Part shown: positions 30,461-32,125 of the stretch, piece by piece
Layout of the letters: every line of letters begins with the position of its first letter
Position numbering within the stretch: the stretch's first letter is position 1
Origin: Firmicutes bacterium CAG:460
Lineage (GTDB): Bacteria > Bacillota_I > Bacilli_A > RF39 > UBA660
Length of the DNA: 64,000 nt
NCBI GenBank assembly: GCA_000437355.1
Contig: FR899762.1
Location: 45,395 to 109,394, forward strand
Direction: 5' to 3'
Made by a program: the position numbers and the translations under genes
Notes under the pieces: generated by a model
What the model was told of the DNA's origin: nothing
Databases searched by the model: none
What the model saw: the letters and a program-made list of their open reading frames with translations, nothing else

Positions 30461-32125
30461 TTATATTAATATTCTTCTTAGAATTTCATCTTTTTTTAAG
30501 AATTCTTTAATTGGTTCTTCATTTGTATAAATCATGTTAATAAAATCTGTGATTGGAACTTCACATTTAAATGTTAGAACTCCTTCATAAATGTCTTCAA
30601 AAACTATTTTACAAATACGATTATCAACAGTTTCTATTTTATAATTACCATGAGAAATACTATTTCTTATACCATTAATTATTGCTTTATTTTTTAAGTG
30701 ACTTTCATTAAATTTCTCATAAAGATTTATTTCATTTAACCTTATAAGTAAGGTTTTTAATTCTTCATAAAGTCTATCTCTTTCTTGATATGATTTTTGT
30801 AAGTTACTTTCTAATATAGCTTTAGCTTTTAAATTACCACTTTTAGTTACTTGCGCTAAACTTTGTTCATTTTTAGAAATTTTAGCATCAATTTCTGTAA
30901 TTCTTTTCTTCTTACTTGTAAATTCTATTTGAAGACTATTTTTAAATCCATTATCCTTATTTATATATAGGACATTTATTGGACTTAAATCAAGAGTGCT
31001 GTAATCTAAGCCATCACTTGGTAAAAAGGTGTATTCATTACTATTTTCTAAAAATTTATCATTTCCATAAGAAAACATGGCTTCAAAAAGAGCAAAAGTT
31101 GTGGTAGCTAATTCTTCTAAACCAATTGTATCATAACTACAATTTTTTTGATATTCTTCAAGAATTTCTCCATAATTAACAGTTTGTTTTTTATAAGCAA
31201 TCTCTAGTAACATCATATTTTTTTGAAAAGATTTTACTAAATGCTTTTTGGGATTTAATCTACTTTCTAAATCTTTTTTCATAAATCTTATTTGATATTC
31301 ATAAGGTATATCTTTAGGATAGTTATAATAAACATAATTAGTTATATCTTCAATTAAATCATCTTTTAATGAAGTTTTTTCCCAATCAAAAGAGTATCCT
31401 TTTTGAGCAAATTTCTTTTTAGCTTTTACAAGTAAATCTAAAGGAAAATCAGCTTCATAATCACTTATAACCATGTCTACTGTTTTAGCCATTTCATCGT
31501 TTAAAAGTCCATCATCATGTTTTTTAAAACTAAAACGCATTCTACTAAATGTTCTTAAAAAACCTTTTATTTCACTTTTAGTTTTTAATGATTTAGTTCT
31601 AGTTTTATCATTTTTATTAATTACTACAATATCATTTTTATATTCAGTATTTGATGAATTTAAATGATAAATGTCCATAGACTTAGAAATCATATTTATA
31701 ACATTAGTCATTCCTAGAGACATCATAGAATTTTCAAGTTTAAATGAAACTTTCTTATTTTCTAAATCTATTATAAATTCTCCATGTGCTAGTTTATTTC
31801 TAATTAGTCCCACTATTTCTTCAGGATTTTTAAATGTAAAACCATCTATTTCAAAACCATCTTTTGTTTTTGTGGCAACTTTATCAACACAATTTAGAAT
31901 ACCTTCATCAATTGTTTTACAAATAAAATTGTTTTTTGAGCCTTCAATTAATTCATCTTTTACAACTAACAAACAACATATTGCTAAACTAAATTTAGCC
32001 ATGTAAAAAAAGTTTTCTTGTAAGATAAAATCTGATACTTTTTTTTGACCCATAAAGCAATCTGCTAAAAACATTGCATATGCTTTAATACCTCCGAAAA
32101 GTAAGAAAAATGTATTTACATCCAT
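30461..32125 (-). CDS. 554-aa protein with two RNxxxH (HEPN-like) motifs; candidate RNase effector
   Basis: R109-NKLA-H114 (nt 31784-31801) and R487-NSIS-H492 (nt 30650-30667), each followed by G. Coiled-coil stretch between them. No other family recognised. Confidence 0.55.
   Translation of the reverse strand: MDVNTFFLLFGGIKAYAMFLADCFMGQKKVSDFILQENFFYMAKFSLAICCLLVVKDELIEGSKNNFICKTIDEGILNCVDKVATKTKDGFEIDGFTFKNPEEIVGLIRNKLAHGEFIIDLENKKVSFKLENSMMSLGMTNVINMISKSMDIYHLNSSNTEYKNDIVVINKNDKTRTKSLKTKSEIKGFLRTFSRMRFSFKKHDDGLLNDEMAKTVDMVISDYEADFPLDLLVKAKKKFAQKGYSFDWEKTSLKDDLIEDITNYVYYNYPKDIPYEYQIRFMKKDLESRLNPKKHLVKSFQKNMMLLEIAYKKQTVNYGEILEEYQKNCSYDTIGLEELATTTFALFEAMFSYGNDKFLENSNEYTFLPSDGLDYSTLDLSPINVLYINKDNGFKNSLQIEFTSKKKRITEIDAKISKNEQSLAQVTKSGNLKAKAILESNLQKSYQERDRLYEELKTLLIRLNEINLYEKFNESHLKNKAIINGIRNSISHGNYKIETVDNRICKIVFEDIYEGVLTFKCEVPITDFINMIYTNEEPIKEFLKKDEILRRILI

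Follow-up and report, generated by a model that had tools for sequence, protein, structure and literature searches.

Can a single polypeptide that carries two HEPN-type motifs work as an RNase by itself, outside a CRISPR system? The question is raised by a gene of Firmicutes bacterium CAG:460 that lies in a stretch of 64,000 nucleotides of contig FR899762.1 (positions 45,395 to 109,394 of the forward strand), which was analyzed as a whole and is called the window here. The gene (positions 30461 to 32125 of the window, minus strand; stop codon TAA at positions 30461 to 30463) was delimited with the list of open reading frames (ORFs) and its homologues. It encodes a protein of 554 amino acids, which we refer to as the dual-HEPN protein. 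An earlier reading of the sequence alone (the sequence-only reading) had pointed out two widely spaced RNxxxHG motifs in this protein and had likened their layout to that of Cas13. On balance, we lean toward the view that the protein is a stand-alone, single-chain, non-CRISPR RNase with two HEPN domains, likely a defense or stress toxin.

The first catalytic-type motif, R109-N-K-L-A-H114-G115 (residues 109 to 115), is encoded at positions 31781 to 31801, and the second, R487-N-S-I-S-H492-G493 (residues 487 to 493), is encoded at positions 30647 to 30667, both on the minus strand and both checked against the sequence. These are the only RNxxxH matches in the 554 residues, where 0.0126 would be expected by chance; for RNxxxHG, the chance expectation in a protein with 15 arginines and 6 histidines is 0.0005. 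The positions and wide spacing of the two motifs stand as they had been described.

Are the motifs maintained in related proteins? A word-indexed search retrieved 118 homologues, nearly all of 550 to 570 amino acids, that align from end to end at identities from 99% down to 24%. Across 43 of these homologues with identities down to 21% (alignment A1), the invariant residues included K56, R109, N110, A113, H114, G115, R487, N488, H492, G493, and F509. An exhaustive HMMER search over 1.84 billion representative proteins returned 408 clusters (50% identity) at E ≤ 0.001 and 203 clusters at E ≤ 1e-30; among the 150 matches listed, 115 had 520 to 640 amino acids and were covered end to end, and the remainder were shorter partial sequences. 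Of 112 additional full-length representatives from this search, 104 had both R[NDH]xxxH motifs (median spacing, 382 residues), and the other 8 lacked the first motif or both. Among 86 full-length copies in genome loci, 84 had the first motif and 85 had the second, and the residue after the motif arginine was N, D, or H family-wide. This pattern of conservation indicates that both motifs are real, under selection, and of the HEPN type.

A scan of one genome per species found relatives in 91 stretches, almost all from metagenome-assembled genomes (MAGs) of uncultured human or animal gut bacteria. These genomes carry labels such as Bacilli, Tenericutes, Mycoplasma sp. CAG:472, Clostridium sp. CAG:628, and Candidatus Coprovivens, and we take them to be RF39-like reduced-genome Bacilli. 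The family is large, uncharacterized, and uniform in its architecture of about 550 amino acids, and it was found only in MAGs of uncultured gut Bacilli/"Tenericutes."

We then asked whether the chain around the motifs has the features of HEPN domains, which are marked by an Rx4-6H motif with a polar residue (N, D, or H) after the arginine, by an acidic residue in helix 2, and by frequent inserts between helices 2 and 3 (PMC3710099). Both RNKLAH and RNSISH agree with this signature in the family form R[NDH]xxxH. The AlphaFold2 model made with alignment A1 had a predicted local distance difference test (pLDDT) score of 89.4 and a predicted template modeling (pTM) score of 0.85, and the N-terminal module modeled separately had a pLDDT of 83.8. 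In these models, residues 1 to 160 (positions 31646 to 32125, minus strand) form an N-terminal HEPN-like module (N-module) with helix 1 (residues 3 to 24), helix 2 (37 to 59), an insert, helix 3 (101 to 113, ending in RNKLAH), three strands (117 to 138), and helix 4 (139 to 155). Inside helix 2, K56 is invariant and position 57 is a glutamate in >90% of members (an aspartate in the window protein), which supplies the acidic residue expected there; no counterpart was identified in the C-terminal module (C-module). The C-module begins with a helical hairpin (residues 393 to 429 and 432 to 472), followed by a helix that ends in RNSISH (474 to 491), three strands (495 to 524), and a last helix (525 to 553). 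Its catalytic half, residues 473 to 554 (positions 30464 to 30709, minus strand), is delimited by a profile match as well as by the model. Each motif is predicted to cap the C-terminal end of a helix, with a loop or strands and then the final helix after it, and the order of elements in both modules is consistent with the published description of the HEPN topology (PMC3710099).

Is there a known family to which the modules can be tied? As an independent profile, we collected the family of pEK499_p136, a protein of 166 amino acids taken from plasmid NC_013122 and annotated "HEPN family nuclease." Using hhalign, the C-module (residues 465 to 554) matched this family (91.4%, E = 8.9e-7, 60 columns) over the motif, the strands that follow it, and the start of the last helix; by its position in the motif-strand layout, the invariant F509 matches the family-invariant F120 of pEK499_p136. 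The N-module (residues 1 to 160) in turn matched the C-module (89.7%, E = 1.8e-6, 26 columns), which argues on sequence grounds that the two modules are homologous to one another and stem from an internal duplication.

The sequence-only reading had found no named family for the protein, which proved wrong at the Pfam level. PF18736, confirmed by a scan to be "pEK499_p136 HEPN," is precomputed for most homologues, and the precomputed PF18736.8 lists the window protein as an unmarked match, that is, at E ≤ 1e-5. An older version of the model, PF18736.6, matched 4 of the 43 members of A1 (best E, 8.5e-5), and a few members matched HEPN_MAE_28990 or AbiU2 instead; the subthreshold Pfam matches fall on three HEPN families, all over the motif region. 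The consensus sequences of the C-module and N-module matched PF18736.6 at profile positions 81 to 151 of 152 with E values of 0.0039 and 0.49 (17.4 and 10.6 bits, under the gathering threshold). Our scans of the window protein with Pfam, PADLOC, NCBIfam, and PHROGs gave no useful family; a DUF4686 match was spurious and due to coiled coil. Sequence and profile searches of the PDB returned just coiled-coil noise or an irrelevant match to ATOX1.

Do the two motifs come together? According to published work, RNase activity needs two HEPN domains in contact (bioRxiv 10.64898/2026.03.20.713152), which are provided by one chain in Cas13 and by separate chains in HepT, ApeA, and DARNA. We ran a mean-field direct-coupling analysis on 298 family sequences (effective number of sequences [Neff], 171), from which gappy columns were removed because an unfiltered run was dominated by them. 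Couplings expected as controls were recovered within the C-module hairpin (510-520 and 506-522) and at the turn near residue 430 (420-439, 425-435, 426-434, and 418-439). Among the top 50 couplings, 6 join residues 101 to 158 with residues 474 to 553, compared to 1.8 expected, a count reached by only 0.8% of comparable pairs of segments. The top 200 include 11 such couplings, with 122/127-514, 137-541, and K111-N494 among them. These couplings provide weak evidence for a contact between the two motif-bearing halves.

What lies between the motifs? The sequence-only reading had described a coiled coil there, which applies to residues 393 to 472 and not to residues 161 to 392. The latter (positions 30950 to 31645, minus strand) are predicted by AlphaFold to form a central domain of mixed alpha/beta structure, a candidate sensor or substrate-binding part, whose consensus had no Pfam match and no hhalign match to HEPN. 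It contains the most conserved segment outside the motifs, FALFEAMFSYGNDKFLENSNEYTFLPSDGLDYSTLDL (residues 344 to 380; positions 30986 to 31096, minus strand; sequence checked), with the pattern FSYGxD...GLDYSxLDLS, where conservation in A1 reaches 90% or more at F347, Y353, D356, D374, and L378. Residues 393 to 472 (positions 30710 to 30949, minus strand) are modeled as a long antiparallel hairpin of the two helices given above, which is probably an extended first hairpin of the C-terminal HEPN domain and accounts for the coiled-coil matches in the PDB.

Does the gene come with a guide RNA or an RNA antitoxin? As the sequence-only reading had stated for arrays and cas genes, the 64-kb window contains no interspaced repeat array, and neither cas genes nor Rfam elements lie near the dual-HEPN gene. 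The intergenic gaps that flank the gene in 80 to 85 homologous loci have medians of 54 and 59 nucleotides (54 nucleotides upstream of the gene in the window). No repeat arrays were found in these gaps, and no consistent tandem repeats were found in the 400-nucleotide flanks of the homologues. These findings are compatible neither with a locus for guide RNAs nor with an antitoxin made of RNA.

On the basis of these results, we propose that the protein would be a metal-independent endoribonuclease made of two HEPN domains in one polypeptide: an N-terminal domain at residues 1 to 160 and a C-terminal domain at about residues 393 to 554, the first hairpin of which would be stretched into a coiled-coil stalk. 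Since known HEPN RNases need two adjacent HEPN domains, the two halves of the chain most likely pack together, and they would do so as an intramolecular pseudo-dimer that, although guide-independent, is comparable to that of Cas13. The central domain (residues 161 to 392, with FSYGxD...GLDYSxLDLS) may bind a substrate or trigger and hold the RNase inactive as long as the cell is healthy. Upon infection, tRNA, rRNA, or mRNA would be cut, and growth or phage replication would stop. The gene itself, beside a defense island, diversifies by allele replacement and duplication. The data establish the motifs with their conservation, the homology of the C-module to a HEPN family, the internal duplication, the lack of arrays and of a conserved partner, and this evolutionary behavior. 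We infer the RNase activity, the intramolecular pairing, the regulatory role of the middle domain, and the role in defense alike.

Several of our results weigh against this proposal. The match of the N-module to the pEK499_p136 family was weak (7.7%, E = 0.0045, 91 columns); this alignment nevertheless pairs K56-D/E57 with the family-invariant K54-E55 and brings the motifs into register. The scan with PF18736.6 gave no match to the window protein, and the other members fell below its gathering threshold (26.6 bits). Pfam membership depends on the model version, since PF18736.6 misses the window protein and PF18736.8 matches it. No PADLOC model (PADLOC-DB v2, E ≤ 1) or PHROG model matched the window protein. 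Foldseek gave no match at E ≤ 0.001, either for the whole model (against PDB and BFVD) or for the isolated N-module (against PDB), and Csm6 appeared at E values of 2 to 3 only. HEPN membership is therefore argued from motif, topology, and profile evidence, with no structural match. The coevolution signal is noisy (Neff, 171) and would look alike whether the contacting residues belong to the same chain or to two chains. With respect to a role in defense, searches of the viral contigs of IMG/VR, the phages in GenBank, and the plasmids of PLSDB gave no relative, and many homologues are flanked by housekeeping genes (hrcA, uvrC, cysS, alr, and prfB, and also yebC). Within the orthologous clade, the dual-HEPN proteins are 76 to 83% identical to that of the window and the neighbors are 73 to 83% identical. 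Lastly, in strains with an identical S41 peptidase, the protein encoded next to the dual-HEPN gene, the block of RecG, DUF1848, helix-turn-helix (HTH), dual-HEPN, S41, DUF6019, and 1,287-amino-acid protein genes was constant in every neighborhood returned (24 contigs).

Could the protein be a housekeeping enzyme instead? A lineage-specific RNA-processing or decay enzyme, comparable to Las1 or to HEPN proteins of the Ire1/RNase L type and unrelated to phage defense, is favored by the uniform architecture across the 408 clusters and by the presence of the gene, usually in single copy, in at least 91 species-level genomes of one clade. The frequent housekeeping flanks on the same strand, the absence from the phages, plasmids, and viral contigs searched, the constant block among strains, and a divergence rate equal to that of the neighbors within the orthologous clade point the same way. 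Comparison of more distant copies argues otherwise. In genomes with RecG 83 to 84% identical to that of the window (and PFOR 88 to 93% identical where it was captured), the dual-HEPN protein was 83%, 37%, or 29% identical. Such a spread at near-equal RecG identity points to the replacement of the gene by divergent alleles rather than to uniformly fast evolution. At one more locus, for which no RecG was retrieved, the dual-HEPN copy is 52% identical.

Duplicated and degraded copies were also observed. Four genomes carry tandem pairs of full-length dual-HEPN genes (L029, positions 7896 to 11252; L058, 2488 to 5527; L064, 2301 to 5634; L067, 1008 to 4341) whose products are 26 to 36% identical, and both motifs are kept in both copies where these are complete. 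In two loci (L076 and L082) the copies are fragmented and probably pseudogenized, and two contigs of one MAG (L036 and L076) each carry a copy. The chromosomal position varies between subclades, and the gene recurs beside NERD, GmrSD, type I restriction-modification (R-M), RhuM, and Dam-like methylase genes, with HipA and unknown genes among the other neighbors of homologues. The 91 species are, in addition, probably a minority of their clade. The pattern is typical of conflict-related genes and argues against a plain housekeeping role, which we therefore consider unlikely.

A second alternative accepts the RNase and changes its assembly. The HEPN domains could pair between chains (N with N', C with C', or N with C') through an interface formed by the hairpin, and a dimer would then contain two composite sites, similar to the assemblies of Csm6, ApeA, or DARNA. 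Characterized single-HEPN enzymes are all dimers or higher oligomers, a long helical hairpin is a typical oligomerization element, and the N-C couplings fit N-C' contacts across chains equally well; divergent tandem paralogues could even form hetero-oligomers. On the other side, the confident monomer model (pTM, 0.85) argues for a compact single chain, and the strict co-conservation of both motifs is explained most simply by one composite site, although neither point is decisive. We regard assembly between chains as rather doubtful and retain the intramolecular pseudo-dimer as the favored arrangement.

A third alternative would make the protein the toxin of a two-gene module. The candidate partners are its two neighbors in the window. 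Upstream lies a gene for a membrane protein with an XRE-type HTH domain and DUF2975 (positions 32180 to 33025, minus strand; HTH_3, 3.5e-15; DUF2975, 4.9e-5), which would serve as an antitoxin or repressor; downstream lies a gene for a membrane-anchored PDZ/S41 peptidase (positions 28858 to 30459, minus strand; Pfam Peptidase_S41, 1e-18), which would serve as an activating or degrading partner. The upstream protein matches HTH models of the repressor or antitoxin type (spr1629, RstR, and PezA-like), and the S41 ORF begins with a GTG 1 nucleotide past the dual-HEPN stop codon. All three genes stay together throughout the close clade, and an S41 gene still follows in L018, where the dual-HEPN protein is 36% identical. 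A weak terminator-like hairpin (positions 30443 to 30462, minus strand; 7 pairs followed by a run of T) overlaps both the dual-HEPN stop codon and the GTG, so that the true start of the protease and the degree of cotranscription are uncertain.

Family-wide, neither neighbor is kept, and most homologues have unrelated genes on both sides; clustering of the neighbors in 84 fetched loci that carry the gene gave no conserved partner, which, together with the short array-free gaps, speaks for a self-contained unit. The tight coupling to a membrane protease described in the sequence-only reading holds for one sublineage, 8 of the 84 loci (the close clade and L018), and is absent from most of the family. 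An S41 protease as a family-wide functional partner was accordingly rejected in favor of a lineage-specific neighbor. The HTH/DUF2975 gene (cluster c15) occurs only in loci with a dual-HEPN copy at least 52% identical to that of the window and is possibly a local regulator of the close clade. The predicted S41 domain follows several membrane helices and is thus probably extracytoplasmic, apart from a cytoplasmic RNase. These observations make a two-gene module improbable. One predicted protein of 363 amino acids from a 1.4-kb metagenome contig (P0031) joins the C-terminal third of the dual-HEPN protein (99% identity) to an S41 peptidase domain; because both ORFs are in different frames in the window, it is probably a frameshift or assembly artifact and no true fusion.

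The dual-HEPN gene also has a strong promoter of its own downstream of the HTH gene, a further argument against the two-gene module. This sigma-70-type sequence, TTGACA-17-TAAAAT with a TG extension (positions 32150 to 32178, minus strand), was checked against the sequence, matches the consensus at 11 of 12 positions, and is the joint best match within positions 28000 to 34500. The consensus promoter noted in the sequence-only reading is thus real as a sequence match. As a class, promoter-like sites were not enriched in this AT-rich DNA (55 found versus 57 expected). A ribosome-binding site, GGGGG (positions 32133 to 32137, minus strand), was read from the sequence 7 nucleotides 5' of the ATG. 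The G+C content is about 25% across the whole window, and the composition of the gene is unremarkable. The leader of the gene (positions 32113 to 32181) is 71% identical over 69 nucleotides to that of a gene for a 1,287-amino-acid protein (positions 28504 to 28572), with the common layout TTGACA-17-TGnTAAAAT-ATAGC...GGGGG...ATG, and a comparable leader precedes a 37%-identical dual-HEPN homologue in L001. This likeness may reflect a shared regulatory design or just the strong-promoter consensus of the organism.

A last alternative, that the motifs are noncatalytic and that the protein has retained HEPN-like sequence while serving as a scaffold for nucleotides or RNA or in a structural role, could draw on the missing structural confirmation of the fold and on the 8 of 112 members without the first or both motifs, but we consider it very improbable, as non-RNase HEPN domains typically lack Rx4-6H (PMC3710099) and the R, N, H, and next G are invariant in both modules in sequences down to 21% identity.

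We return to the favored reading, a single-chain RNase likely active in defense or stress, and to the surroundings of its gene. The sequence-only reading had placed the gene in a defense island, and PDC-M46, type I R-M, NERD, and a toxin-antitoxin pair indeed lie 6 to 18 kb from it. The gene is at the stable edge of a real defense island. The pair assigned to PDC-M46, a candidate system of PADLOC, consists of overlapping genes (positions 12002 to 14453, minus strand) for proteins of 342 amino acids (PDC-M46A, 5e-70) and 481 amino acids (PDC-M46B, 2.7e-134); the PDC-M46B product resembles the SMC-like ATPases of Lamassu LmuB, and Pfam had no match in either gene. The type I R-M operon (positions 14566 to 21486, minus strand) encodes HsdM (526 amino acids), HsdS (382 amino acids), and HsdR (1,020 amino acids). 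Between hsdS and hsdR lies a gene for a protein of 391 amino acids (positions 17621 to 18796) with no Pfam or PADLOC match, in a slot where an accessory defense gene is often present in other genomes. Library scans further identified a protein with NERD and a topoisomerase-type zinc ribbon (positions 22668 to 23426, minus strand) and a DUF433/DUF5615 (PIN-like) toxin-antitoxin pair (positions 23732 to 24592, minus strand).

Close to the dual-HEPN gene, the neighbors in the window are the HTH/DUF2975 protein, the S41 peptidase, DUF6019, and a Metallophos protein. The gene for the 1,287-amino-acid protein (positions 24653 to 28516, minus strand) has its own promoter with 11 of 12 consensus positions (28541 to 28569); the product has a C-terminal calcineurin-like phosphoesterase domain, no match over its first approximately 1,000 residues, and 31 to 73% identity in related genomes. 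Among strains with an identical S41 protein, the variable part of the island begins past this gene and holds the toxin-antitoxin pair and NERD, an OLD-family DUF2813/AAA_15/TOPRIM nuclease, or another HTH gene (including loci L089 to L094). On the other side, beside recG, a DUF1848 protein is encoded (positions 33095 to 34030, minus strand) that matches the PADLOC model "RTasDUF1848" (DRT-associated; 7.8e-30) and has no exact match on record; given its conserved synteny with recG across many related genomes, it resembles a core gene here rather than a defense component. A small ORF by the NERD gene (positions 23534 to 23655 in the window, 8726 to 8830 in L001, and 12772 to 12930 in L089) encodes a repeat peptide rich in cysteine, such as MEEKEKCSCGCECEECNCKDDCNCQECDCENCSC in L001. 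The ORF appears as direct repeats of 23 and 33 nucleotides, and in some relatives it immediately follows the dual-HEPN gene.

What would a single-chain RNase of this kind mean? To our knowledge, characterized HEPN RNases have one HEPN domain per chain and need dimerization, with the exception of Cas13 and one CoCoNuT component, and we know of few natural single-chain dual-HEPN enzymes outside CRISPR. If the favored reading is true, a compact one-chain enzyme with neither guide RNA nor partner would be a new solution to HEPN activation, a tractable model for the off/on control of HEPN RNases, and possibly a small scaffold for engineering. Few candidate immune genes are specific to the uncultured RF39-like Bacilli of the gut, about whose phages hardly anything is known, and this gene is one of them. 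If the protein were a housekeeping enzyme after all, it would be a lineage-specific RNA-processing enzyme of reduced-genome gut bacteria and likewise new. A bolder and more tentative idea is that it is the founding member of an undescribed family of single-gene immune or stress RNases, the smallest natural intramolecular HEPN pseudo-dimer, independent of a guide and gated by a central sensor, which could represent the kind ancestral to Cas13-type effectors.

How does the protein compare to known systems? PrrC and RloC have an N-terminal ABC-type ATPase, whereas the dual-HEPN protein has no ATPase or P-loop match. Type III toxin-antitoxin systems (AbiF-like) differ by their tandem-repeat RNA antitoxin, which is absent upstream of the dual-HEPN gene. 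Like the dual-HEPN protein, Cas13 carries two R-x4-H HEPN motifs far apart in a single chain, which are expected to form one composite RNase site; in contrast, the dual-HEPN loci have no array or cas genes, and their gaps of about 55 nucleotides leave no room for a guide locus. The smallest Cas13 known to us has about 775 amino acids, compared to 554 here. No likeness to Cas13 was found in the PDB sequence searches, with the Pfam and PADLOC Cas13 models, or among the top 50 Foldseek matches listed. The protein is thus Cas13-like only loosely, in that a single chain contains two HEPN domains, and without an array; a specific relationship to Cas13 is not supported by any match in Foldseek, Pfam, or PADLOC. 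CnuE of type III-A CoCoNuT is another non-CRISPR protein with two HEPN domains in a coiled-coil-rich system, but its second motif is shortened to RxH and it has McrB- and McrC-like partners in the same operon (PMC11090510); both motifs of the dual-HEPN protein are full RNxxxH, and no McrBC-type gene was adjacent in the loci examined.

In sequence, the closest likeness we describe is to pEK499_p136 (PF18736; Anantharaman et al., 2013, PMC3710099), in which R-N-S-[IV]-[AS]-H precedes three short strands (with the I-x-F element) and then the last helix. The K-E pair of helix 2 is common to pEK499_p136 and the N-module, and the pEK499_p136 family is reported near R-M and other defense genes. Proteins of that family have about 160 amino acids and one HEPN domain and came mainly from Proteobacteria in the family search, whereas the dual-HEPN protein has 554 amino acids, two modules, a middle domain of 230 residues, and a helical stalk. 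By these comparisons, it is a remote relative of the pEK499_p136 HEPN family that has undergone duplication and elaboration. In function, the comparison leads to ApeA and DARNA (PD-T7-3), each of which is likewise a single protein of about 450 to 600 amino acids with its own promoter and a similar HEPN motif (RNKITH in ApeA). ApeA and DARNA each have one HEPN domain and form the active site by homodimerization or assembly into a dodecamer, whereas the dual-HEPN protein has two HEPN modules per chain, matches neither PADLOC nor HEPN_Apea, and belongs to a family confined to one clade of gut Bacilli. In both of these systems, a non-HEPN domain senses the trigger and tRNA or phage RNA is cut on infection, and they offer the best functional parallel for the dual-HEPN protein.

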